64,000 nucleotides of DNA from Candidatus Omnitrophota bacterium (GTDB lineage: Bacteria; Omnitrophota; Gorgyraeia; 2-01-FULL-45-10). Each line of letters begins with the position of its first letter. Position 1 is the stretch's first letter. The position numbers and the translations under genes are program-made. The notes under the pieces were generated by a model that was not told where the DNA came from, ran no database searches, and saw only the letters and a program-made list of their open reading frames with translations. The stretch is taken from NCBI GenBank assembly GCA_041650935.1, contig JBAZKH010000001.1:73243-137242 (forward strand). Reading direction: 5' to 3'. Shown piece after piece: positions 7,137-60,166 of the stretch.

Positions 7137-8094
7137 AAGATTCAGGGTGCTTAACGGGAAGACGGTCCTTGTTACCGGCGGTGCCGGCGCCATCGGAGGG
7201 AACCTCGTAAAGTTTCTCTCCGCGCATGGCGCGAAGGTGGTCGTTATCGATGACCTCTCAGCCGGTTTCGCGGATAATCTTTCTTTAGGGCGGAAAGTGG
7301 TATTCTACGAAGATACCATCCTGAACGACGAGATCCTCAAGAAGGTCTTTAAGGAAAGGATAGACTATATCTTCCATCTGGCGGCACACTTTGCCAACCA
7401 GAATTCCATAGATCATCCCTGCGAAGATCTTTTAACGAATGCTCTCGGGACGCTGAAGCTTCTGGAGTACGGCCGGCGGCATGCGGTCAAGAGATTTATA
7501 TATGCTTCCTCGTCCTGCGTTTACGGTTCTACGGATAAAAAGATGACCGAAGACCTGATAACGAGACTGGAGACGCCATACGCCGTGTCTAAATTGACCG
7601 GCGAAGAATATGTCCATTTCTATCATCGTTATTACAGGATGAAAGCAACGGTCGTCCGGTATTTTAACGCATACGGGCCGGGAGACCCTCCGGGCAGGTA
7701 TCGCAACGTGATACCGAACTTCTTTATGCTGGCCGCTAAAGGCAAGCCGCTTGTAATAACGGGCACCGGCCGTGAGACGAGAGATTTTACGTTTATGGAT
7801 GATGTCATCCGCGGGACGGTGCTTACAGTCACCACAGACGCATCTATGGGCGAGATATATAATATAGGAAGCGGCAGGGAGACCGAGATACTGCGTCTTG
7901 CGAAATCGATAAATAAGATAACCGGCAGCAAGGCAGGCATAGAATTTACCGCCCTGCGTAAATGGGACGCTATACGGAAGAGGGTTGCCAACATAAAAAA
8001 GTCGCGGAATCAATTGGGCTATGAACCGGTCGTCGGGCTGGAGGACGGCCTTGCCAGGACGTGGACGTGGTTTAAGGAAAGGTACGGCGTTTAA
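7129..8094 (+). CDS. NAD-dependent sugar epimerase/dehydratase (SDR; UDP-glucuronate decarboxylase-like)
   Basis: VLVTGGAGAIGGNLV; catalytic SSSCVYG ... YAVSKLTGE (S/YxxxK). Confidence 0.8.
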   Translation: MDKRFRVLNGKTVLVTGGAGAIGGNLVKFLSAHGAKVVVIDDLSAGFADNLSLGRKVVFYEDTILNDEILKKVFKERIDYIFHLAAHFANQNSIDHPCEDLLTNALGTLKLLEYGRRHAVKRFIYASSSCVYGSTDKKMTEDLITRLETPYAVSKLTGEEYVHFYHRYYRMKATVVRYFNAYGPGDPPGRYRNVIPNFFMLAAKGKPLVITGTGRETRDFTFMDDVIRGTVLTVTTDASMGEIYNIGSGRETEILRLAKSINKITGSKAGIEFTALRKWDAIRKRVANIKKSRNQLGYEPVVGLEDGLARTWTWFKERYGV

Positions 8095-23687: not shown

Positions 23688-23846
23688 TAAGGTAGTCCCT
23701 CGGTGCAGGACTTAGATTGTTGCACCTCGGGACGATTTGTCTAAAGTTAGATACAAATTAAGGTAGCCCCTCGCTGCCGGAGTTAGACAGTAGCAGCTCG
23801 GGACGATTTGTCAGAGTTAGATAATAACAAATCGGAGGTATGTATA
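23688..23846 (+). promoter_or_regulatory. Structured 5' leader: 2 tandem units of conserved RNA module A (bipartite hairpin) each followed by module B hairpin; terminal B hairpin abuts the SD
   Basis: Unit 1 is GTCCC-tc-GGTGCA-[ggacttagattgt]-TGCACC-tc-GGGAC. Unit 2 is GCCCC-tc-GCTGC-[cggagttagacagta]-GCAGC-tc-GGGAC, with compensatory inner-stem changes. Then GATTTGT-[cagagttagataata]-ACAAATC, then GGAGG, then GTG 23847. Confidence 0.6.
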
Positions 23847-29412: not shown

Positions 29413-30489
29413 GTGAAGATACTGATCATTAACCCCTTTGGGATAGGAGATGTGCTCTTTTCGACCCCACTGATAGAGGCTATAAAGAGAATATTCCCGC
29501 AGTCTTATATCGGATATATCTGTAACAGGAGGGTCTCGGAACTAATAAGGACGAATCCGCACCTGGGCAGGATATTCGTATATGAAAAAGACGATTACAG
29601 GGAGATATGGCGCCACTCCAAGATGAGATGCCTGGTAAAGATACTCGCTTTTTTGCGGGATGTCAGGAAAGAGCGGTTCGACGTATCGATAGACCTTTCG
29701 CTGAATTACCAATACAGCATGCTCTTTAAGCTGATAGGCATAAAGACGCGGGCGGGTTTCAATTACAGGAACAGGGGTAAGTTCCTTACGCACAAAATAG
29801 ATATCGAAAGTTTCGACGATAAACATGTTGTTGAGCATTATCTCGATGTTTTACGGCTTCTGGGTGTCGATCCGTCGAAGGGCATAGCCGCTCCGAAAAT
29901 ATATGTCTCCGAAGAAAGCCGGCGTTTCGGTGAAAAATTTCTGGAAGAAAATAGTATCGCTAAGACGGACCTGCTGATAGGCATGGTGCCCGGTTGCGGC
30001 GCCAGCTGGGGACGGGATGCCGGCCGCAGGCGGTGGGAGGGTAAAAATTTTGCCATTGTTGCCGATAGGCTCATCGAAAAATATAACGCGCGGGTCGTTT
30101 TGCTGGGCAATTCCAAAGAGACAAATATATGCGAAGATGTCCGGGCGGCGACAAACGACAGGGCTATAAACTATAGCGGTAAGACCTCGATCGAAAAACT
30201 TATAGGTATTCTCAGCAGGTGCAAAGTCCTGATAACGAACGAAGGCGGTATGCTTCATATGGCGGCCAGCCTCGGTATCAGGACGGTGTCGATCTTCGGC
30301 CCTGTCGATGAGACCACCTACGGTCCGTATCCCAGGAGCGCAGACCATATTATCCTAGCCAAAAAGGACATTCCATGCAGGCCGTGTTATAAGCGGTTCA
30401 AATATAACGATTGCGATGAAAGGCGCTGTCTGGAGGCTATTACCGTCGATGAAGTCTTCCGGGCCGCGGAGGGCGCGATTAGGCGATGA
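29413..30489 (+). CDS. Family 9 glycosyltransferase (heptosyltransferase-like)
   Basis: MKILIINPFGIGDVLFSTPLIEAIKR...; C-terminal GGMLHMAASLGIRTVSIFGP. Confidence 0.8.
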   Translation: MKILIINPFGIGDVLFSTPLIEAIKRIFPQSYIGYICNRRVSELIRTNPHLGRIFVYEKDDYREIWRHSKMRCLVKILAFLRDVRKERFDVSIDLSLNYQYSMLFKLIGIKTRAGFNYRNRGKFLTHKIDIESFDDKHVVEHYLDVLRLLGVDPSKGIAAPKIYVSEESRRFGEKFLEENSIAKTDLLIGMVPGCGASWGRDAGRRRWEGKNFAIVADRLIEKYNARVVLLGNSKETNICEDVRAATNDRAINYSGKTSIEKLIGILSRCKVLITNEGGMLHMAASLGIRTVSIFGPVDETTYGPYPRSADHIILAKKDIPCRPCYKRFKYNDCDERRCLEAITVDEVFRAAEGAIRR

Positions 30490-31640
30490 AGTGCGATATC
30501 GTAATACCGGTCTGGAACCAGCCGGAGACTACCAGGGAATGCATCGCGGCCATAAGAAGGACGACGCGCTATCCTTACAGGCTCATAATCATAGACAATG
30601 GGAGCGGAGACGAGACGCGGAATTACCTGAAAGAAACGGCGCGGCTATATCCGTCTGAAGTAGAGATTGTGCGGAACGATACGAATCTCGGGTACGTTAA
30701 GGCGGTGAACCAGGGGCTTAAAATTTCAACCGCGCCCTACGTATGTGTTATGAATAACGATACCATACCAGGCGCAGGATGGCTGGAGAGGCTGATAAAT
30801 TTCGCCGAGACACACCGCGGGATAGGGCTGATGAATCCTCTGTGTAACGGTCACGGCAGCCTTTCGATAGATGAGTACGCCGCGCATGTCGCACGGAACG
30901 CGGATAGATATATGGAGATGAACCAGTGCTTCGGATTTTGCACGCTCATCCGCCGCGAGGTCATAGATAAAGTGGGCTGCCTGGACGAGGTCTTCGGGAT
31001 GGGCGGTTACGACGATACGGATTATTCGATGAGGGCATGCAGGGCAGGATACCTTTGCGCGTCGGTCCACTCCGCGTATGTATATCACAAAGAGCACGTC
31101 TCTTTCAGGGCCATGGGTGCCAAAGACAGTTCTACGCTTAAAGGGCAGGCGGAATACCTTAAAAAGTGGCCGCGCCATCTGCGGGTCGGATTGACTTTTT
31201 CTGTCGATAGCAGGACCGATAGGCCTGAGATCGCTTCTGTTTTGAAGGCGATATTGTTTCTGGCCAGGGAGTGGTGCTGGGTCAATTTCTGGATCATAGG
31301 CGACGAAAAAGAGAACAGGGAGAAGATAGCGTCGGTTTCTGCCGAAATCGGCATGCCGCTGCACCAGAATATAAAATTCAATTTTATCCCGGCGGCCTTT
31401 GCGAAACTCCAGACTTTAACGAGAGTTATCGAGCGCGCCTTCGGAACGAAGAGAAGGAAGAGGTATGATGCGGTCCTTGTCGATAACGACGGTGTTGCGG
31501 CGCTCCTGAATTTCTTCTTCGTCGTGCATAATACAAGGATAATCCTGGCAAAGCCCGGATCCGGGATGACGGCGGAAGCATGCCGGATGATTGCCGAGAT
31601 ACGGAAGAGCGGGGAGAGGTTGTACGCAATTAACGCGTAG
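30486..31640 (+). CDS. GT2 domain + conserved ~130-aa C-terminal extension of unknown function (paralog A of 4)
   Basis: MKCDIVIPVWNQPETTRECIAAI...IIIDNGSGDET...DTNLGYVKAVNQG; KKWPRHLRVGLTFSVDSR extension. Confidence 0.7.
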   Translation: MKCDIVIPVWNQPETTRECIAAIRRTTRYPYRLIIIDNGSGDETRNYLKETARLYPSEVEIVRNDTNLGYVKAVNQGLKISTAPYVCVMNNDTIPGAGWLERLINFAETHRGIGLMNPLCNGHGSLSIDEYAAHVARNADRYMEMNQCFGFCTLIRREVIDKVGCLDEVFGMGGYDDTDYSMRACRAGYLCASVHSAYVYHKEHVSFRAMGAKDSSTLKGQAEYLKKWPRHLRVGLTFSVDSRTDRPEIASVLKAILFLAREWCWVNFWIIGDEKENREKIASVSAEIGMPLHQNIKFNFIPAAFAKLQTLTRVIERAFGTKRRKRYDAVLVDNDGVAALLNFFFVVHNTRIILAKPGSGMTAEACRMIAEIRKSGERLYAINA

Positions 31641-36554: not shown

Positions 36555-37571
36555 ATGAACTGCGATATTGTTATACCTGTCTGGAATCAGCTTGCCCTTA
36601 CGCGGGACTGCATAGATTCCATCTTCAAGAATACCGCGGATATTGCATTCAAGCTGATCGTAATCGATAATGCCAGTAATGAGGAGACGAAGTCATATCT
36701 TGCAGACCTCCGGAACCAGAAACCCGGGCAGGTCATCGTCGTATGGAACGCGGCCAATCTTGGTTTCGTGAAGGCGGTTAATCAGGGTATAGCCGCTTCC
36801 AGCGCGCCGTACGTCTGCCTGTTAAATAACGATACGCTCGTTACGCGGAATTGGCTTAAAGAGATGATCGCGGTCGCGGAATCCGCCGACGATATCGGGC
36901 TCGTGAACCCGTCGAGCAATAATCTGGGGCAGGCGCCTGCGCGGGGTGAGCCTATCGAGCTTTATGCCGGGAAAATAGCTAAAGAGTCCGGCGGTTTTAT
37001 CGAACTGGGCGCGGCGATAGGGTTCTGTATGCTCATCAAGAGACGGCTCTTCGAAAAGATAGGGGTCTTCGACGAAATATACGGTATGGGGAATTTCGAC
37101 GATACGGACTTTTCGCGGAGGGCGGTGCAGGCGGGCTACCGGTGCGTAAGGGCCTGCGGCGCCTATGTCTATCACAGGCAGAATACGTCTTTCGATAAGG
37201 TCAGGACCTTCGACGAAGATTTTAAGCGCAACCGCGAGATATATGAGTTCAGGTGGGGACGGCCGCGGAGGATCGCGTATATCCTCGACAAAGTCGATAC
37301 CAACAATTTAAGACGGATAAACGGCGATGCGATGACGCTTGCGAGGAGCGGCAACTGGATATGGTATTTCATAAAGGATCCTATAGCCGTTCCGAAACAT
37401 TCCAATATTATCATTAAATATTTCCAGGGACAGTGGTTCTACCCAAAAGTCATATTCACTATATTAAAGAAAAAGAAGAGATTTAACGAGATAAATATCG
37501 GCGCCGAACGGGTGGGCGGGTTTTTATCGGGCCTGACTTTCGTCCATAAAGCGAAGATAAAATTTTTCTGA
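36555..37571 (+). CDS. GT2 domain + C-terminal extension (paralog C of 4)
   Basis: MNCDIVIPVWNQLALTRDCIDSI...VIDNASNEET...ANLGFVKAVNQG; FRWGRPRRIAYILDKV extension. Confidence 0.7.
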   Translation: MNCDIVIPVWNQLALTRDCIDSIFKNTADIAFKLIVIDNASNEETKSYLADLRNQKPGQVIVVWNAANLGFVKAVNQGIAASSAPYVCLLNNDTLVTRNWLKEMIAVAESADDIGLVNPSSNNLGQAPARGEPIELYAGKIAKESGGFIELGAAIGFCMLIKRRLFEKIGVFDEIYGMGNFDDTDFSRRAVQAGYRCVRACGAYVYHRQNTSFDKVRTFDEDFKRNREIYEFRWGRPRRIAYILDKVDTNNLRRINGDAMTLARSGNWIWYFIKDPIAVPKHSNIIIKYFQGQWFYPKVIFTILKKKKRFNEINIGAERVGGFLSGLTFVHKAKIKFF

Positions 37572-37587: not shown

Positions 37588-37887
37588 TAAAGGTAGTCCC
37601 TCGGCGCGGGAGTGAGAGCGTTGCACCTCGGGATGATTTGCAGGAGTGAGATAAGGGCAAATCACGGTACAATTTGTCTAAAGTTAGATACAGATTAAGG
37701 TAGTCCCTCGGCGCGGGAGTTAGATTGTTGCGCCTCGGGATGATTTGCAAGAGTGAGATAAGGGCAAATCACGGGACGATTTGTCTAAAGTTAGATATAA
37801 ATTAAGGTAGTCCCTCGCTGCCGGAGTTAGACAGTGGCAGCTCGGGACGATTTGTCTAAAGTTAGATAATAACAAATCGGAGACATA
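37588..37887 (+). promoter_or_regulatory. Structured 5' leader: three tandem 107-nt units (module A + module B/B') ending at the SD of the GT2 gene
   Basis: GTCCC at 37596, 37703 and 37810, an exact 107-nt period. Inner stems GGCGCG/TGCACC (imperfect), GGCGC/GCGCC and GCTGCC/GGCAGC covary. Loops carry GGAGTTAGA. B' is GATTTGCA-[rgagtgagataaggg]-CAAATC. The final B is GATTTGT...ACAAATC, then GGAG, then ATG 37888. Confidence 0.6.
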
Positions 37888-38649
37888 ATGGAGAAGATAC
37901 CGGTATCGGTAGTGGTCATAACAAAGAACGAAGAAAATAATATAGCAGATTGCTTAAAGAGCGTCTCGTGGGCGGACGAGATCGTGGTGCTCGATGACGA
38001 TTCTACCGACAAGACCGTAACCATAGCCAGGCAATATACCGACAGGGTCTCCGCGCGCAAGATGGACATAGAGGGGCGGCACAGGAACTACGCGTACGGC
38101 CTGGCTAAAAATAAGTGGGTCCTGTCGCTCGATGCCGATGAACGCGCAAGCGCCGAGTTGGAAAACGAATTGCGCGGGCTCTTCAACGGCGGGATGAAAG
38201 CGGCGGCCTATTCGATACCTATAAAGACTTTCATAGGAAAACGCTGGATAAGATACGGCGGATGGTATCCCGCCCCTAAGGTGCGGCTCTTCGACAAAGG
38301 GCGCTTCAAGTATGAAGAGGCCGAGGTCCATCCCAGGGCATTTATAGACGGTACATGCGGCCATCTTACGAAGGATATAGTCCATTATTCATACAGGGAT
38401 TTTCACGATTTCTTCCAGAGTCTCAACAACCAGACGACGTTAGAGGCAAAAAAATGGTTCAAAGAACGCCGAAAGATAGGGTTTTTGAAGATGTACCGGA
38501 AGGCCATAAGCAGATTCTTGAAGGCCTATCTCCAGAAGGCCGGTTTCAGGGACGGGCTCCTGGGGTTCGTCATATCTTATGGCGGCGGCCTGTATCAATT
38601 CATGAGCTACGTAAAATACCGCGAGATGCTTGATAATGAAGGCGAATAG
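37888..38649 (+). CDS. Small family 2 glycosyltransferase (KdtX/WaaE-like)
   Basis: VSVVVITKNEENNIADCLKSVSWADEIVVLDDDSTDKT. Preceded by three tandem structured leader repeats and GGAG. Confidence 0.7.
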   Translation: MEKIPVSVVVITKNEENNIADCLKSVSWADEIVVLDDDSTDKTVTIARQYTDRVSARKMDIEGRHRNYAYGLAKNKWVLSLDADERASAELENELRGLFNGGMKAAAYSIPIKTFIGKRWIRYGGWYPAPKVRLFDKGRFKYEEAEVHPRAFIDGTCGHLTKDIVHYSYRDFHDFFQSLNNQTTLEAKKWFKERRKIGFLKMYRKAISRFLKAYLQKAGFRDGLLGFVISYGGGLYQFMSYVKYREMLDNEGE

Positions 38650-39718
38650 CTGCGACATAATAATTCCGGTCTGGAACGAGCCGGATGTTACCAGGGAGTG
38701 CATAGATTCTATAGCCCGGCATACGCATTATCCTTACAGGCTGGTCGTGATAGACAACGCGAGCGCGGAACCCGCGCGGAGTTATCTGGCGGGCCTGAAA
38801 CGCCGGGGCGATATGACAGTGGAGCTCATAAGGAACGAAACGAATCTGGGTTTCGTGAAGGCCGTGAACCAGGGGATAAGGTTTTCGGACGCGCCTTATA
38901 TATGTATCATGAATAACGATACCATCGCCACGGACGGCTGGCTGGAAGCGATGATAAAGGCGATGGAGACCAACTCCGGCGTCGGTCTGATAAACCCGAC
39001 GAGCAATACATTCAGCCACTATCCGGACGATAACGAAACGATAGATGAATATGCCGCCAGGCTGCGTCTTTTTAGCGATGCCATACAGGAGCTGCATTGC
39101 TGCCGCTTCTTCTGCACCGTTATAAAACGCGAGATCCTGGAAAAACTGGGGCCGCTGGACGAGATCTACCATCTCGGCTATTTCGACGACACCGACTATT
39201 GCAAGAGGGCCCAGGCCCTGGGCTACAGGACCGCCCGCGCGAAGAGCGCATACGTCTACCATAAAGAGAATACGACTTTCAAAAAGCTCGCCGACAATAG
39301 CGCCCTATTCAAGGCAAACGAAAATATATTCCTCAAGCGATGGGGCCGGCACGTAAGGGTGGGCTACTTTGTAGATAAAGTAAGATCGCGGGAGCGCATA
39401 GAGGCTATCGCCATAGATGTGGCAAGGCGCGGCCACCAGGTATTCATCTTTATAAAAAAAGGTCTGGAGTGGCCGGTGGGTCTGGACCACTACAATATAG
39501 TAAAGGTAGAGGTCAGCCCGCGCCTCTTCGGCATCGTCTCGCTCTATAAGATACTTAAAAGAAAGAAGAAGAAGGCCCTGGAGATACTTTTGACGGACAA
39601 TCCTCTATTCGGCGCTGTACTGAATATTTTAAAGTTCCTTCACGGGGCCGATCTGTTTGTAAGCGCCGGAAAAGAGGAACTTGTGGATAGGCTTAAAGAG
39701 AGGTCGAGTGTATTCTGA
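38636..39718 (+). CDS. GT2 domain + C-terminal extension (paralog D of 4)
   Basis: ATG 38636 gives MKANSCDIIIPVWNEPDVTRECIDSI...VIDNASAEP...TNLGFVKAVNQG; LKRWGRHVRVGYFVDKV extension. Confidence 0.7.
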   Translation: MKANSCDIIIPVWNEPDVTRECIDSIARHTHYPYRLVVIDNASAEPARSYLAGLKRRGDMTVELIRNETNLGFVKAVNQGIRFSDAPYICIMNNDTIATDGWLEAMIKAMETNSGVGLINPTSNTFSHYPDDNETIDEYAARLRLFSDAIQELHCCRFFCTVIKREILEKLGPLDEIYHLGYFDDTDYCKRAQALGYRTARAKSAYVYHKENTTFKKLADNSALFKANENIFLKRWGRHVRVGYFVDKVRSRERIEAIAIDVARRGHQVFIFIKKGLEWPVGLDHYNIVKVEVSPRLFGIVSLYKILKRKKKKALEILLTDNPLFGAVLNILKFLHGADLFVSAGKEELVDRLKERSSVF

Positions 39719-52193: not shown

Positions 52194-53231
52194 ATGCCTG
52201 AGCTAAGACGCGATCCTGTAATCGGAAGATGGGTCATAATATCTACGGAGAGGGCGCGGAGGCCGGACCAGTTTGTTTCGGCGGCCGCCGAAAAAGAAGA
52301 GTTCCCGGCGGGCGGGAAGTGCCCGTTCTGTGAAGGCAATGAGGGTCTTACCGCTCCCGAGATCACCGCTGTCAGGCATCACGGCAGCCGGCCGAATAGT
52401 CCGGGATGGGAAATCCGCGTGATCCCCAGCATATCGCCGCTTTTGCAGATCGAAGGTTCTTTGGACCGCCATGGCCACGGTATGTATGATCTCATGAATG
52501 CCCGCGGCGCGCATGAGATAGTCATAGAATCGCCCCGGCATCTCAAGGAGTCCGAACTTCCGAAAGAGCAGATGGTCAAAGCCGTCAATGTTATCCTCGA
52601 CAGGATACACGACCTCGAGAAAGACAGGGACATAAAATATGTGCTGATCTTTAAAAATTGCGGCAAAGCCGCGGGCAGCGGCCGCATACAGCACGCAAGG
52701 ACGCAGATCATCGGGACACCCGTCAACCTGAAAAGGGTCAAGGAAGAGCTTGCGGGCGCAAAGGCGTATTATGATTACAAAGACAGGTGCATATTTTGCG
52801 ATATGCTTAAGCAGGAGATGCAGTCCGGCAAGCGCGTGATAGCGGAATCCAAACATTTTGTGGCGCTGGCCGCTTTCGCGTCGCGTTTTCCTTTCGAGAC
52901 CTGGATAATGCCTAAAGAGCATTCCTGCGATTTCTATAAGATCGATAGGACCAGGATACCGGACTTTGCCGAGATCATGGCGACGATATTTGCGAAGATG
53001 CGCAAGGTCCTGGGCGATTTCCCGTTCAATTTTGTACTGCATACGGCTCCTTTCAGGAGAGATTTAGGAAAACGCGGGTATTGGGAGACGATAGAATGCG
53101 ATTATCACTGGCACTTCGAGATACTCCCGATACTTACCCGCGTCGCCGGGTTCGAATGGGGCAGCGGGTTCTACATAAACCCGCTCTTACCGGAGGATGC
53201 GTGTAATTCCGTGAGAGAGGCAAAGATTTAA
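52194..53231 (+). CDS. Galactose-1-phosphate uridylyltransferase-like protein (HIT superfamily), active-site variant
   Basis: GalT zinc knuckle CPFCEGNE is present. The HPH nucleophile motif is replaced by HARTQ. Confidence 0.7.
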   Translation: MPELRRDPVIGRWVIISTERARRPDQFVSAAAEKEEFPAGGKCPFCEGNEGLTAPEITAVRHHGSRPNSPGWEIRVIPSISPLLQIEGSLDRHGHGMYDLMNARGAHEIVIESPRHLKESELPKEQMVKAVNVILDRIHDLEKDRDIKYVLIFKNCGKAAGSGRIQHARTQIIGTPVNLKRVKEELAGAKAYYDYKDRCIFCDMLKQEMQSGKRVIAESKHFVALAAFASRFPFETWIMPKEHSCDFYKIDRTRIPDFAEIMATIFAKMRKVLGDFPFNFVLHTAPFRRDLGKRGYWETIECDYHWHFEILPILTRVAGFEWGSGFYINPLLPEDACNSVREAKI

Positions 53232-53233
53232 TT

Positions 53234-54238
53234 ATGAACGAGCTTAGGCGCGATCCGATAACCGCAAGGTGGATCATCGTTCCGCTGGATAAGTCGGCGG
53301 ACGTCTCCGACTTTATTTCGGAACCGCACCTGAAGACTAAGGACTCCTGCCCGTTCTGCTACGGCGGCGAGACGATGACGCCGCCGGAGATAGTCGCGCA
53401 CCGGAAAAGCGGCAGTCCCAATACCCCGAATTGGACCGTGCGGGTTGTGCCGAACAAATTCCCCGCCCTTCGCATAGAGGGAGAGCTCGAGAGGCAGGGT
53501 GTCGGTATGTTCGATATGATGAACGGCGTCGGGGCGCATGAAGTCATAGTAGATACGCCGGATCACTTCAGGGATATGGCGGACTTGAGCCATGCGGAGA
53601 CCGAAGAGGTCATCTGGGCTTACAGGGCCAGGTCGCTCGACCTGAGGCGGGATAGCCGCTTCAAGTATATCCTTATATTCAAGAACTACGGACGCTCGGC
53701 CGGCGCATCTTTGGAGCATCCGCACAGCCAGCTCATAGCGCTGCCCATCGTTCCCAAGAGGGTCCACGAAGAGATGGAAGGCGCCGCAAAGTACTACGAT
53801 TATAAGGAGAGATGCGTATTCTGCGATATAGTGCGGGAAGAACTGGAAGAGACGGACAGGATAATATATAATGATGAAAAGTTCGTGGCCTTCTGTCCTT
53901 ATGTTTCGCGTTTTGCCTACGAGATATGGATATTGCCGAAAAAGCACGCGTCCGATTTTGCCAATATCGACAGGGACCATGTTTCGTCGTTTGCGCGGGC
54001 ACTCCGGGATTCCCTGGCAAAATTAAAAGGACTCTTGAAAGATCCGTCATATAATTTTATAATACATACGTCGCCGATCAATGGCCATGAGCGCGAGGAT
54101 TACCACTGGCACGTAGAGATAATGCCGAAGCTTTCGAAGGTGGCCGGCTTCGAATGGGGAAGCGGTTTTTACGTCAATCCGGTTTTACCCGACATCGCGG
54201 CGCGGAATTTGTTTGGTGTAAAAGTTCCGGAGAAATAA
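53234..54238 (+). CDS. galT: Galactose-1-phosphate uridylyltransferase
   Basis: CPFCYGGE and canonical EHPHSQLIALP. Confidence 0.75.
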   Translation: MNELRRDPITARWIIVPLDKSADVSDFISEPHLKTKDSCPFCYGGETMTPPEIVAHRKSGSPNTPNWTVRVVPNKFPALRIEGELERQGVGMFDMMNGVGAHEVIVDTPDHFRDMADLSHAETEEVIWAYRARSLDLRRDSRFKYILIFKNYGRSAGASLEHPHSQLIALPIVPKRVHEEMEGAAKYYDYKERCVFCDIVREELEETDRIIYNDEKFVAFCPYVSRFAYEIWILPKKHASDFANIDRDHVSSFARALRDSLAKLKGLLKDPSYNFIIHTSPINGHEREDYHWHVEIMPKLSKVAGFEWGSGFYVNPVLPDIAARNLFGVKVPEK

Positions 54239-56212: not shown

Positions 56213-57955
56213 ATGGACGATCTGAAACTATCCCTTAACAGTATGGAGGTGTTGAAGAAGAGATATCTCCTTAAAGATGACAATCAAAATATCGTCGAAA
56301 CGCCGGATGAGCTCTTCCGCCGGGTCGCCGGCAATATCGCGAAAGGCGAAAAGAATTTTAAGAGGGGCAACGACGCAGCCGGGGTGGAGGAGAGTTTTTA
56401 CGGGATGATGAAGGACCTGGAGTTCATGCCGAACTCGCCGACGCTCATGAACGCGGGGACATCCCTGGGGCAGTTGTCGGCTTGTTTCGTCCTGCCTGTC
56501 GGGGATTCAATAGGCGATATCTTCACATCGCTCGGCAATATGGCGAAGATCCACCAGACGGGCGGCGGCACGGGTTTCGACTTCTCGCATTTAAGACCAA
56601 AGGACGATCTGGTGTCGACGACGAAAGGCGGCGCTTCCGGCCCGGTCTCGTTCATGCGCATATTCGATACGGCTACCGGGGTGATTCTGCAGGGCGGCCG
56701 AAGGCGCGGCGCCAACATGGGGATTTTGCGATGCGACCATCCGGATATAATCGAGTTTATAGAAGCGAAGCTCGATAAGGGCGCATTTTCGAATTTCAAT
56801 CTCTCCGTAGGCATAACCGGCAAATTCATGAGGGCCGTCAGGACAGGAGACGACTTCGACCTGATAAATCCGCGGACGAAGAGAAAGGCGCGGAAGATAA
56901 GCGCGAGAGTGGTATTTAATCTCATAGCGCTCGCCGCCTGGCGCACGGGAGATCCCGGCCTAATCTTTTTAGACGCCATAAACGCGAAGAATCCTACGCC
57001 CGGCATTGGTGCCATAGAAGCGACTAATCCTTGCGGCGAACTGCCGCTTCTTCCGTATGAGAGCTGCAACCTGGCCTCAATAAATCTTTCAAAGATGGTG
57101 AGGGGTGGAAACGTCGATTGGAAAAAAATACGCTCTTGCGTGAGGCTGGGGATCAGGTTTTTAGATGACGTAATAGAGGTGAATAAGTTTCCTCTTACGC
57201 AGATAAGGAATATAACGTTTGATAATAGAAAGATAGGGCTTGGCGTTATGGGATTTGCCGATATGCTGATAAAGCTGGGGATACCGTATAATTCCGCCAA
57301 GGCCGTCTCGTTTGCCGGCGGCCTTATGAGGTTTGTACGCGCGGCATCGGTCGCGGCATCGGTAGATCTTGCCAGAGAAAGAGGCGTATTCCCTAATTAC
57401 AAAAGATCGATCTATGCGAAGAGGGGCCTGCGGCTCAGGAACGCTACGGTCAATACCATAGCCCCGACGGGAACCGTCAGTATAATAGCGGAATGTTCCA
57501 GCGGAATAGAGCCTATATTTGCCATCAGTTTTATCCGCAATATCCTGTCCGGCGCGAAACTGTTCGAGACCAACCCGATATTTAAAGAGATGGCTAAGGG
57601 CGGCTTGCGCAAAACAAAAGAGGTGCCCGCGGCTTTTAAGAAGATATTCATAACCGCGTTCGACGTGGCGCCGGAAACGCATCTGCATATTCAGGACGCG
57701 TTTCAAAAACATACGGACAATTCGGTTTCAAAGACGATAAACCTGCCGCAGGGCGCTACCGTTGAAGACGTAAAGAACATATACCTTACGGCTTACAAAT
57801 TGCGCTTGAAAGGCATAACTGTATACCGTTACGGCAGTAAAGAGGGGCAGGTCCTTTCTTTTAATTATGGCGCAAGGCATAAACTTGCGGCCGGGTCGGT
57901 AGTTGCCGGATCCGAATATTCGGGCGGATGCGTTGCCGGAATATGCCCGTTTTAA
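56213..57955 (+). CDS. nrdJ: Adenosylcobalamin-dependent (class II) ribonucleotide reductase
   Basis: MDDLKLSLNSMEVLKKRY start; active-site ATNPCGELPL; SCNLASINL. Monomeric class II architecture. The ORF-track extension from 56111 is an Arg-rich artefact. Confidence 0.75.
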   Translation: MDDLKLSLNSMEVLKKRYLLKDDNQNIVETPDELFRRVAGNIAKGEKNFKRGNDAAGVEESFYGMMKDLEFMPNSPTLMNAGTSLGQLSACFVLPVGDSIGDIFTSLGNMAKIHQTGGGTGFDFSHLRPKDDLVSTTKGGASGPVSFMRIFDTATGVILQGGRRRGANMGILRCDHPDIIEFIEAKLDKGAFSNFNLSVGITGKFMRAVRTGDDFDLINPRTKRKARKISARVVFNLIALAAWRTGDPGLIFLDAINAKNPTPGIGAIEATNPCGELPLLPYESCNLASINLSKMVRGGNVDWKKIRSCVRLGIRFLDDVIEVNKFPLTQIRNITFDNRKIGLGVMGFADMLIKLGIPYNSAKAVSFAGGLMRFVRAASVAASVDLARERGVFPNYKRSIYAKRGLRLRNATVNTIAPTGTVSIIAECSSGIEPIFAISFIRNILSGAKLFETNPIFKEMAKGGLRKTKEVPAAFKKIFITAFDVAPETHLHIQDAFQKHTDNSVSKTINLPQGATVEDVKNIYLTAYKLRLKGITVYRYGSKEGQVLSFNYGARHKLAAGSVVAGSEYSGGCVAGICPF

Positions 57956-57969
57956 AAAACGGCCGGAAA

Positions 57970-57979
57970 TGCTATAATG
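57970..57979 (+). promoter_or_regulatory. Extended -10 element TGcTATAAT upstream of rubredoxin
   Basis: TGCTATAAT lies 23 nt upstream of RBS AGAGGAG. Confidence 0.35.
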
Positions 57980-58001: not shown

Positions 58002-58160
58002 ATGGATAAGTATAAGTGTTTAGTTTGTGGATATATTTACGATCCGGCAAAAGGGGATCCGGATAACGGTGTGCCGGCAGGGACGAGTTTTGACAAGATA
58101 CCCGATGACTGGGTATGCCCGGAGTGCGGCGCTCCGAAGAGTGAGTTCGAAAAAGTGTGA
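58002..58160 (+). CDS. Rubredoxin
   Basis: 52 aa with CLVCGYIY...[10 protein letters not shown], the two CxxCG knuckles. Below the ORF-track length cutoff. RBS AGAGGAG. Confidence 0.8.
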
Positions 58161-58249
58161 AGCGGTCCCTCGGCGCGGCCTATAATTAGATAGTAGCCTT
58201 GCCCGGGACGGTTTGTAGAAGTAAAACTACAACAAATCGGAGGTAAAAA
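58161..58249 (+). promoter_or_regulatory. Divergent single copy of the same leader module upstream of porD
   Basis: GGTCCC-tc-GGCGCGG...CCTTGCC-c-GGGAC (degenerate inner stem), then GTTTGTAG...CTACAACAAATC, then GGAGG, then ATG 58250. It shares the GTCCCTCGG and ACAAATCGGAGG ends with the other copies. Confidence 0.45.
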
Positions 58250-58438
58250 ATGAAGGCAAAAATTGACGCAGATACATGCATTGGTTGCGGGCTTTGTGTG
58301 ACTACGTGCCCCGAGGTTTACAAGATGCAAGACGATAAAGCGGTTGTTTATGCAAGCGTCGCTCCTAATGGGTCGGAGGAGAGTTGTCAAAAGGCTGCAG
58401 ATGAATGCCCCGTGACGGCAATAACCGTAACCAGGTAA
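58250..58438 (+). CDS. porD: 4Fe-4S ferredoxin (PFOR delta subunit-like)
   Basis: CIGCGLCVTTCP ... CQKAADECP; immediately upstream of porGA. Preceded by a divergent structured leader copy plus GGAGG. Confidence 0.7.
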   Translation: MKAKIDADTCIGCGLCVTTCPEVYKMQDDKAVVYASVAPNGSEESCQKAADECPVTAITVTR

Positions 58439-58492
58439 AGCGCGAACCCCGCACCTTCTAGATAGGGTGCAGGGGCGGGAAGAAGGTGCGGT

Positions 58493-60166
58493 GTGGCGGA
58501 TTTTTCTGTCCTTATAGGAGGTAAAGCCGGTTTCGGCATAGACAGGGCCGGCTTCGCCATTGCGAATATTTTGAATCAGATGGGATATTGCTTGTATATC
58601 TATCGCGATTACCCGTCGATCATACGCGGCGGCCATACTTTTTCGCTTGTAAGGGCGGCGGCGCGCAAGATCGCGGCCCATAAGGATAGGATCGACACCC
58701 TGATCGCATTGAACCAGGATGCGTTCAGTCTGCATAAAGATAAGCTGACGCGGGACGCGGTGGTGATCTATGACTCGGATTCGGTAAATATAGAAAACGC
58801 GCCGCCGGCTAGCAAGACCGCCGGCCTGCCGATCACGAAGATCCTGAAGGAAGAGAATGCCCCCGAGATAATGCGCAATTCTTGTGTGATCGGCGCCTTC
58901 TGTAAGGCGGCAGGGATTTCGCCGGAGATCCTCGAAGGAGAATTCAGGAAGGATTTTCCGGAGGGGCTGGATCTTAACCTCAAGGTTGCGCGCCGGGGAT
59001 ATGATGCTGTTTCGGAAATTTATAAGATTAAAGCCGCGGGCCGGAAGCGGCTTCCTATTTTTACCGGGAACGAAGCCACGGCCCTGGGCCTTGTAAAGGG
59101 CGGTCTCGAGACCTATATCTCTTATCCTATGACGCCGAGTTCGCCCATACTTCATTATTTGGCCGCGCTCGCGGATGAATTTTCACTGAAAGTGATCCAT
59201 CCCGAGAGCGAGATATCGGTTATGTTGATGGCGCTTGGCGCAGCTTACTGCGGCGAGAAAGCCGCCGTCGGCACATCGGGCGGCGGGTTTTGTCTCATGA
59301 CGGAGGGATTAAGTTTTTCGGCTATGGCGGAACTGCCGGCTGTCATCGTCCTTGGCCAGAGGCCCGGACCGTCTACGGGACTTCCTACATATAGCGCTCA
59401 GACGGAGCTCCATTTTGCGCTCAATGCCGGCCAGGGGGAATTCCCCAGACTTGTAATAGCGCCGGGCGATGCGGAAGAGGCGTATTATATGGCACAGGTT
59501 GCTCTCAATATCGCGTGGAAGTGCCAGGTGCCGGCAATAATACTCACCGACAAAAACCTCGGAGAAGGCGTTTACAGTTTCGATAGCGGGCTTATCCCTG
59601 ATATTAAGGAAGACCGCCCTATCCTGTGGGACAGGAAATCGCCGTACAAACGATACAGCTATGCTGAAAATGGGGTTTCGCCGCTGGCCTTTGCTCCCGC
59701 CAAAGACAACGTCATTAAGATAAATAGCTATGAACACGATGAATTGGGATTGACCACAGAAGACCCGGCCGAAACAGAGAAGATGCAGGCCAAGCGCCTG
59801 AGTAAAGAGAAATATTTGCGCGCGGAATGCGCCCGTTATGAAACCGTCAAGACGTACGGGAATAAAAGCGCACGGACGGCCGTCATTTGCTGGGGTTCCA
59901 ATAAAGGCGCGGCAGTCGAAGCGGCGGAAGAATTGGATTTAAAGGTGGTTCAGCCGCTCTGTCTTTCGCCGTTCCCGGTTTCTCAGGTTGCGGAAGCGAT
60001 TGCCGGTGCCGAGAAATTAATAGCCGTGGAATCGAACGCGACGGGGCAACTCGTCAGGCTCATGAATCTGCACGGACTGAGTGTCCATAAAACCATATTG
60101 AAATATGACGGAAGGCCGTTTTCTGTAGAAGAACTGGTTTCGGAATTACGGAAGGCGATGAAATGA
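58493..60166 (+). CDS. porA: Pyruvate/2-oxoacid:ferredoxin oxidoreductase, gamma-alpha fusion
   Basis: N-terminal VLIGGKAGFGIDRAGFAIANIL (gamma), then FTGNEATALGLVKGGLETYISYPMTPSSPILHYLA (alpha). Confidence 0.8.
   Translation: MADFSVLIGGKAGFGIDRAGFAIANILNQMGYCLYIYRDYPSIIRGGHTFSLVRAAARKIAAHKDRIDTLIALNQDAFSLHKDKLTRDAVVIYDSDSVNIENAPPASKTAGLPITKILKEENAPEIMRNSCVIGAFCKAAGISPEILEGEFRKDFPEGLDLNLKVARRGYDAVSEIYKIKAAGRKRLPIFTGNEATALGLVKGGLETYISYPMTPSSPILHYLAALADEFSLKVIHPESEISVMLMALGAAYCGEKAAVGTSGGGFCLMTEGLSFSAMAELPAVIVLGQRPGPSTGLPTYSAQTELHFALNAGQGEFPRLVIAPGDAEEAYYMAQVALNIAWKCQVPAIILTDKNLGEGVYSFDSGLIPDIKEDRPILWDRKSPYKRYSYAENGVSPLAFAPAKDNVIKINSYEHDELGLTTEDPAETEKMQAKRLSKEKYLRAECARYETVKTYGNKSARTAVICWGSNKGAAVEAAEELDLKVVQPLCLSPFPVSQVAEAIAGAEKLIAVESNATGQLVRLMNLHGLSVHKTILKYDGRPFSVEELVSELRKAMK

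Follow-up and report, generated by a model that had tools for sequence, protein, structure and literature searches.

A family of two-hairpin RNA elements abutting Shine–Dalgarno sequences and tRNAs in Candidatus Omnitrophota

Stabilisers of the ompA type are transcribed leaders with a pair of hairpins, of which the second lies immediately before a Shine–Dalgarno (SD) sequence that is itself unpaired, in front of strongly expressed genes. The RNase III sites of T7 early mRNAs and the stabilisers formed by repetitive extragenic palindromes (REP) and bacterial interspersed mosaic elements (BIMEs) are structured same-strand intercistronic filler just upstream of the next SD, with an internal loop in a helix of ~20 bp and, plausibly, a role as 3′ protector for the upstream RNA. 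Here we describe an element that resembles both, in a 64,000-nt stretch of a Candidatus Omnitrophota genome (assembly GCA_041650935.1, contig JBAZKH010000001.1, positions 73,243 to 137,242 of the forward strand; hereafter the window), where one copy occupies the 89-nt spacer between a rubredoxin gene (58002–58160) and a gene for a 62-aa ferredoxin (58250–58438). The original prediction, made from the letters of the window, had taken this copy as a divergent leader module tying glycan and redox genes into one putative regulon. We find that it belongs to a new family of structured leader and intercistronic RNA that is restricted to one phylum and precedes genes of many unrelated kinds.

The element is ~75 nt long and comprises two hairpins, A and B, which follow each other with no linker. 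Helix A rises from an invariant 4-bp foot (UCCC/GGGA) through an internal loop with two-fold symmetry (CUCG/CUCG) and a G-C pair to a variable stem of 5–7 bp with its loop. Helix B consists of 8 bp (C-GAUUUGY...RCAAAUC-G), and its last pair takes base 1 of the SD or, at tRNAs, position +1 or a neighbour of it. Across 128 non-redundant copies, (G)UCCCUCG, CUCGGGA(C/U), GAUUUG and CAAAUC were invariant or nearly so, giving a core of ~30 nt in total, and the innermost four base pairs of A, like the Y-R pair of B, varied freely with complementarity kept through compensatory changes. In one alignment, of 42 sequences, 92.5% of the cells in the proposed helices were paired, with a covariation of 0.282 against a shuffled mean of 0.107 (reached by 0 of 500 shuffles; top slid control, 0.12); in the other, of 48 sequences, the figures were 98%, 0.267 and 0.082 (again 0 of 500; top slid control, 0.09). 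Moreover, covariation links the final base of hairpin A to the base that comes after B (CG in 100 copies, UA in 23, CA in 3 and UG in 2), and in the 48-sequence alignment this pair was formed in 48 of 48 cells with 19 double changes, compared to 41 of 48 for the rival pairing of that final base with a G at the 5′ foot of helix A. RNAalifold predicted the same fold unaided, and mutual information with average-product correction returned helix pairs only, with no pseudoknot or tertiary covariation. Helices A and B would stack coaxially to form a dumbbell of ~20 bp, with the conserved part at its centre, where both flanks exit.

Two further interactions were considered and rejected. Kissing of loops A and B through GUCUAA/UUAGAC can be drawn for the window copies and fails in others, and sequestration of the SD by CCUC stretches could involve at most 3–4 bp, the SD being predicted to be open. 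Separately, two units have hairpin A only (L072, 400–476; L114, 85–156; L numbers denote retrieved loci), with RAAAUUUUnnnAGAGKUAA standing in for helix B; this segment may be a second type of B module.

Copies were retrieved by two pattern scans, one of a collection with one genome per species, which used the reverse complement of the core, and one of metagenomes; the patterns lacked the SD and ended 25–30 nt before it. Together they recovered at least ~125 non-redundant copies. The one-genome-per-species scan gave 63 loci, 39 of them from 12 Candidatus Omnitrophota metagenome-assembled genomes (MAGs) and one from a MAG labelled Planctomycetia, the rest being high-GC chance matches without the 3′ arm of helix B; a single MAG, STD1_81, contributed 16 exact hits in 15 loci. 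The metagenome scan gave at least 110 loci, with ~85 true elements among the matches listed. No copies were found on viral contigs. Rfam 15 had no match for the whole window at gathering scores or for the element regions at E ≤ 10, where just snoRNA noise (E > 7) appeared, and a literature search by phylum, topic and core sequence found nothing relevant. The combination of traits is unusual: the family is phylum-wide and multi-copy, abuts SDs and tRNA position +1 without a spacer, and has an invariant dumbbell centre.

An SD, a start codon and an open reading frame (ORF) followed the element in 100 of 125 assessable copies and a tRNA in 11 (at tRNA +1 in nine, with offsets of −1 in L063 and +1 in L114), and another family unit followed in six by the automatic rule, or ~10 by eye; three cases were unclear and one was a chance match. 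Among the ~125 copies, no genuine one lay antisense to its neighbouring gene or at a gene 3′ end without a same-strand downstream partner. Every genuine copy was thus in sense orientation, 5′ of an SD with its ORF, a tRNA or another unit, which is not the random orientation relative to genes that the original prediction had named as the mark of a REP-type repeat or a miniature inverted-repeat transposable element (MITE). No rRNA genes occurred among the retrieved loci, so that rRNA leaders lie outside the sample. On the upstream side, a same-strand ORF stopped ≤9 nt from the element in about half of the first 45 copies, its stop codon often being the TAA or TAG of a conserved UAAGGUAG flank; in one case (L007, 5600–5640), the mlaF stop codon lies inside loop A, the mlaF frame crossing the 5′ arm of helix A as 'IQGSPSPLR*'. 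In the lineage of the window, the element has stop codons in all three frames.

The genes served do not support a pathway regulon. Downstream products confirmed by Pfam were the ribosomal proteins S20 (rpsT), S16 (rpsP) and L21 (rplU), glutaredoxin (grx), IscU, ThiS, MlaD, lumazine synthase (ribH), ClpP and HU, and those judged by their N-terminal sequence were glnA, pfkA, rny, xseB, thioredoxin and lipoproteins; several tRNAs complete the list. The Pfam-confirmed products are unrelated and mostly abundant, and the element is a general gene-start mark rather than the sign of a glycan–redox regulon. A shared leader does not here mean a shared pathway regulon, which is a lesson for annotation. 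Moreover, the element recurs with different stems at orthologues across species (rplU, mlaD, thiS, tRNA-Gly(CCC), tRNA-Ser(UGA) and rubredoxin), which argues for vertical inheritance under selection and not for recent mobility.

Two loci carry other RNA features beside the element. In L165 (7316–7410), ~95 nt of GC-rich sequence, beginning GGAGAGGTACGGAAGCGG, separate the element from a tRNA-Ser at 7411; neither ARAGORN nor Rfam found a tRNA in this segment, which may be an unannotated small RNA. An element-bearing contig, L126, also has a c-di-GMP-I-GGC riboswitch (2022–2102, 67.9 bits), apparently unrelated.

Where the DNA ahead of helix A is non-coding, canonical promoters of the form TTGACN-17-TAnAAT occur 7–61 nt before it. 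Sigma-70-like sites matching at least 10 of 12 positions were found in sense for 17 of 117 copies, against 3 in antisense and 1.3 in shuffles, and in L072 and L025, 8 nt separate the end of the −10 box from helix A. Since these promoters lie upstream of it, the element is transcribed. No sense sigma-70 site within the element was placed to start its gene, the few 9/12 matches being at chance level, and no terminator-like sites were present in the three element regions of the window, where helix A is followed just by GAUUUG.

An invariant core combined with freely covarying stems points to a common recognition partner, and to this extent the trans-acting factor site proposed in the original prediction finds support, the pathway regulon attached to it apart. 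Our preferred reading, held tentatively at a rough probability of 0.4, is that the element is a post-transcriptional boundary module of expression units, recognised by a factor and acting in processing, stabilisation or insulation. The invariant central 12–14 bp would be the recognition site of one conserved trans-acting protein, such as an endoribonuclease or RNA-binding protein. Both flanks would exit at the dumbbell centre, the 5′ one frequently including, within UAAGGUAG, the stop codon of the upstream gene, the 3′ one leading into the SD or tRNA. The module would insulate the downstream SD or tRNA from upstream sequence and would probably define or protect RNA ends, as a 3′ hairpin for the upstream RNA and as a 5′ hairpin directly before the downstream SD, with strong, context-independent expression of housekeeping genes as the outcome. 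At the spacer described above, the copy would serve the ferredoxin and oxidoreductase cistrons inside a longer transcript. Endoribonucleases often autoregulate through their own leaders, and in one lineage a gene that looks RNase Y-like by eye from its N-terminus has the element as its own leader (L023, 3893–3967; same sequence in L081), which offers a faint lead to the partner.

A bolder form of the boundary module, which we consider unlikely, is an RNA punctuation system in which a phylum-specific nuclease, or the RNA itself, cuts polycistronic and leader transcripts at the dumbbell centre. If true, it would give defined 5′ ends at housekeeping SDs, tRNAs freed from mRNA precursors and protective hairpins on both products, and would be a bacterial, genome-wide equivalent of tRNA punctuation in mitochondria or of the processing of CRISPR repeats. 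The Omnitrophota are ultra-small bacteria that have not been cultured and may depend on hosts, and we know of nothing described about their mechanisms of gene expression. One RNA module shared, dozens of times per genome, by ribosomal-protein, chaperone/protease, redox, envelope and tRNA genes would amount to a lineage-specific layer of expression; it could serve as a handle on its protein partner, as an aid to reading operons in MAGs and as a compact natural insulator part.

Several points weigh against the boundary module. The recognising factor is hypothetical, and the invariant core would be superfluous for simple insulation. The offset to the tRNA 5′ end is not strictly fixed, which disfavours element-directed cleavage as the source of tRNA 5′ ends, and the 5′ tail from the predicted start to helix A ranges from ~1 to 50 nt, so that the hairpin is not always 5′-terminal. 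The predicted probability of an unpaired SD was 0.51 compared to 0.46 in control genes, a marginal difference (p = 0.01–0.09). The base pairs themselves leave the strand unsettled, with 18 G.U against 24 A.C cells, and the antisense fold is on average ~1.5 kcal/mol more stable. In antisense, the invariant UC/UC loop becomes CGAG/CGAG, a tandem G.A motif, and the arms of B are identical on both strands. Antisense promoters within the downstream genes were found in 5 of 115 cases against ~2 expected, which is unconvincing, and a sense RNA must exist because the downstream genes need to be expressed.

The same observations can be set against other readings. A somewhat unlikely one makes the element an operator, bound on its symmetric core by a dimeric RNA-binding protein that would act as a global post-transcriptional regulator and lower or raise translation across a large set of housekeeping genes, a far wider form of the regulon in the original prediction. 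It would account for a core that is invariant, two-fold symmetric (CUCG/CUCG) and adjoins the SD, for a growth-related gene set, and for the presence of the element in just some transcription units (three spacers for ~60 genes in the window; the 16 exact hits in STD1_81); it sits badly with the tRNAs, which are abutted too and are untranslated, with an SD that is not sequestered in the predicted fold and for which no alternative pairing was found, and with the unrelated hairpins that replace the element at the rubredoxin–ferredoxin site in relatives. As for a CsrA-type site, about half of the copies show G-G-A on the 5′ side of loop A, a motif that whole lineages lack and that leaves the invariant helices unaccounted for. 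We regard as improbable a co-transcriptional signal akin to put RNA or boxA/boxB, by which the nascent dumbbell would modify RNA polymerase for antitermination or anti-pausing in highly expressed genes, tRNAs and very long operons. Two adjacent stem-loops of ~75 nt in mRNA and tRNA leaders, with copies in a 64-kb array of genes on one strand, would suit such a role, which would not, however, require an element that adjoins the SD or tRNA +1 exactly and pairs with the first SD base; many copies stand before one short gene alone, for instance rpsT (89 aa) or rubredoxin (52 aa), ops is not above chance, and the first ten genes of the window include no NusG paralogue.

A selfish or neutral repeat at the DNA level, of the kind of REP with its RAYT transposase or of MITEs, would act through single-stranded DNA hairpins and owe its orientation to replication-strand bias plus selection. 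The GTAG at the 5′ foot of hairpin A in ~70% of copies, as in REP sequences, the tandem expansions, the upstream ORFs that sometimes run into the element and the ambiguous strand test speak for it, and we nonetheless judge it quite improbable given the lack of inverted pairs, an orientation that is never random, a constant spacing of 0 nt to the SD or tRNA, the recurrence at the same orthologous genes in different species with compensatory stem changes, and the lack of copies on viral contigs. It is very improbable that the element is a riboswitch sensing a global signal or a self-cleaving ribozyme cutting at its own 3′ edge: the invariant internal loop and junction between variable peripheral stems, and the precise 3′ boundary at the SD or tRNA +1, would be expected of either, and yet nearly all conserved bases lie within helices, no pseudoknot or tertiary covariation was detected, Rfam gave no ribozyme or riboswitch match at E ≤ 10, no expression platform is present and the tRNA offset is inconstant. 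We know of no riboswitches upstream of tRNAs. Finally, that the element is itself a promoter or intrinsic terminator is hardly credible. It does stand immediately before genes with a purine as the first base after it, and a GC-rich hairpin followed by AUUU recalls a terminator; however, sigma-70 hexamers at the right spacing are missing from its interior, canonical promoters lie upstream, terminator-like sites were not found, and it never occurs at a gene 3′ end without a same-strand downstream partner.

The rubredoxin–ferredoxin locus of the window has the following features.

57951–57978, + strand: promoter-like site, TTTAAA-16 nt-TATAAT with TG before the second hexamer (10/12), upstream of the rubredoxin gene
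58165–58209, + strand: module A, GTCCCTCGGCGCGGCC...GGCCTTGCCCGGGAC, with an outer stem pairing U58166–C58169 with G58205–A58208 and then an imperfect inner stem-loop
58210–58238, + strand: module B, GGTTTGTAGAAGTAAAACTACAACAAATC (GGTTTGT...ACAAATC)
58209–58239, + strand: pairing of module B, GGUUUGU (58210–58216) with ACAAAUC (58232–58238), including one G.U pair, and the closing pair C58209–G58239, in which G58239 is base 1 of the SD
58239–58252, + strand: ferredoxin SD GGAGG (58239–58243) and ATG (58250)

Modules A and B preceding GGAGG are present as described in the original prediction, and the repeat is the same as at 23.7 kb and 37.6 kb, the copies there lining up in register with this one in a repeat search. 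Under a covariance model of 42 copies, of which it is one, it (58159–58238) scored 49 bits (E ~2e-9), compared to 66–89 bits for the other five units of the window, and the core pattern occurred in the window at two sites (three strand matches) against 0.14 expected. The copy is a true but divergent, low-scoring family member. Its inner A stem, described as decayed, is longer than usual and imperfect rather than simply decayed. The copy departs from the family in the G.U pair of helix B and in the internal loop, which on its 3′ side has CCCG (one base fewer) in place of the invariant CUCG, so that UC stands opposite C rather than UC/UC and the invariant CUCG/CUCG loop is lacking. Loop B, AAGUAAAAC, is typical of the wider family. 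The genes downstream, taken in the original prediction for porDGAB, are not that classical set: the ferredoxin is of the single-cluster type (Pfam Fer4_13) and is followed by a 2-oxoacid:ferredoxin oxidoreductase (OFOR) encoded as a fused gamma/alpha gene and then the beta subunit. The site at 57951–57978 is the sole strong promoter-like site nearby, and the copy is predicted from this to be intercistronic in a single rubredoxin–ferredoxin–OFOR transcript.

The spacer between ferredoxin and OFOR (58447–58496) holds a second conserved hairpin, in which CCGCACCUUCU pairs with AGAAGGUGCGG over 11 bp (−25.7 kcal/mol, z = −1.7) and masks an SD-like AGAAGG just 5′ of GTG 58493, the start of the fused gamma/alpha OFOR gene; its arms are almost identical in L072 (~650–740). 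This hairpin may be a translational control structure.

Orthologous rubredoxin–ferredoxin clusters, with Rub and Fd proteins 79–87% identical to those of the window, were present in L072, L025 (an Omnitrophota MAG locus) and L086, in the first and last of which the OFOR gene follows. They differ in where the element lies.

L072: full element upstream of the rubredoxin gene; perfect A module and degenerate B in the rubredoxin–ferredoxin spacer
L025: full element (72.8 bits) upstream of the rubredoxin gene; unrelated hairpin in the spacer
L086: no family element upstream of the rubredoxin gene; unrelated palindrome in the spacer

The rubredoxin–ferredoxin spacer thus has a stable hairpin in every orthologue, with or without the family element, which is dispensable at this site and evolutionarily labile in position, in agreement with the low score of the window copy. 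Any hairpin may suffice there, which fits a role in stability or processing. L086 is also the nearest DNA match to the window among the retrieved loci (78% identity over 1 kb).

The other five units of the window form two tandem arrays, and the covariance model found no further family copies in the window beyond these six units.

23689–23833, + strand: two tandem units (23689–23759 and 23760–23833), followed by GGAGG and GTG 23847 of a DUF4330 gene
37590–37878, + strand: three tandem 107-nt units (covariance hits at 37590–37663, 37697–37770 and 37804–37878)

The array at 37.6 kb is followed by GGAGA and ATG 37888 of a GT2 gene, and its first two units are of a GGGAU...A variant followed by ACGGKAC plus an additional B hairpin. 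As in the window, the element follows the orthologue of the GT2 gene at 36555–37571 in L058. Tandem units also occur in L003, L024 and L044: local repeat expansion, disfavoured in the original prediction, does take place, at both arrays and in these three loci. The family as a whole reaches far beyond the window. In the extended variant (37635–37695 and 37742–37802; also L086, L109 and L171), helix A ends in GGGAU and is followed by helix B′, by A + CGGGAC and by a further B hairpin; the CGGGAC is a second copy of the 3′ foot of A, and because the lone UCCC could pair with either GGGA, alternative folds are possible.

The window has ~60 plausible genes, all on the + strand, with the element at three spacers only. 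Annotated genes are mostly for glycan biosynthesis (GT2, GT4, epimerases, cytidylyltransferases and a methyltransferase). ARAGORN found no tRNA in the window. Paralogous coding repeats of 71–76% identity pair 30481–30799 with 38640–38958 in the glycan cluster and 53100–53194 with 54098–54192 in two adjacent genes.

Compared with the systems outlined at the outset, the element departs from each in some respect. The ompA leader serves a single gene and has no shared invariant sequence, in contrast to ~30 invariant nucleotides at more than 100 loci that include intercistronic and tRNA-leading positions, and the 5′ tail before helix A is variable in the element, unlike in ompA. The geometry is compatible with an RNase III site (5–7 bp, loop, 4 bp and 8 bp, if stacked), but the element comprises two separate hairpins. 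Unlike BIMEs, it has a fixed orientation and lacks inverted pairs, and it also stands before operon-first genes and tRNAs. REP sequences and BIMEs occur in both orientations or as inverted pairs and mostly 3′ of genes, whereas the element forms direct tandems only; as for the GTAG that REP sequences have at the 5′ foot of their imperfect palindrome, a consensus G-T-A stands upstream of helix A in ~70–75% of copies and is absent in several lineages. The fixed SD/tRNA junction, the recurrence at orthologues and the absence of a flanking duplication in the aligned flanks likewise set it apart from MITEs. JUMPStart/ops, the RfaH system of polysaccharide operon leaders, was tried and discarded: the ops 12-mer GGCGGTAGnnTG was found only with one mismatch, at chance level and at none of the elements, GGTAG alone being shared.

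The put RNA of phage HK022 is similar in being ~70 nt long, cis-acting and made of two adjacent stem-loops in a leader downstream of a promoter. It has no sequence relation to the element and is not tied to an SD or tRNA +1, whereas the element is chromosomal, multi-copy and confined to one phylum; by what is established for put RNA, the layout of two hairpins alone is shared. Synthetic insulators such as RiboJ and the Csy4 hairpins differ in being engineered, and a natural genome-wide counterpart was not found described in the literature searched. They are nonetheless like the element in being structured, portable and set immediately before the SD; they free expression from its upstream context, and cleavage by Csy4 falls at the 3′ foot of the hairpin.
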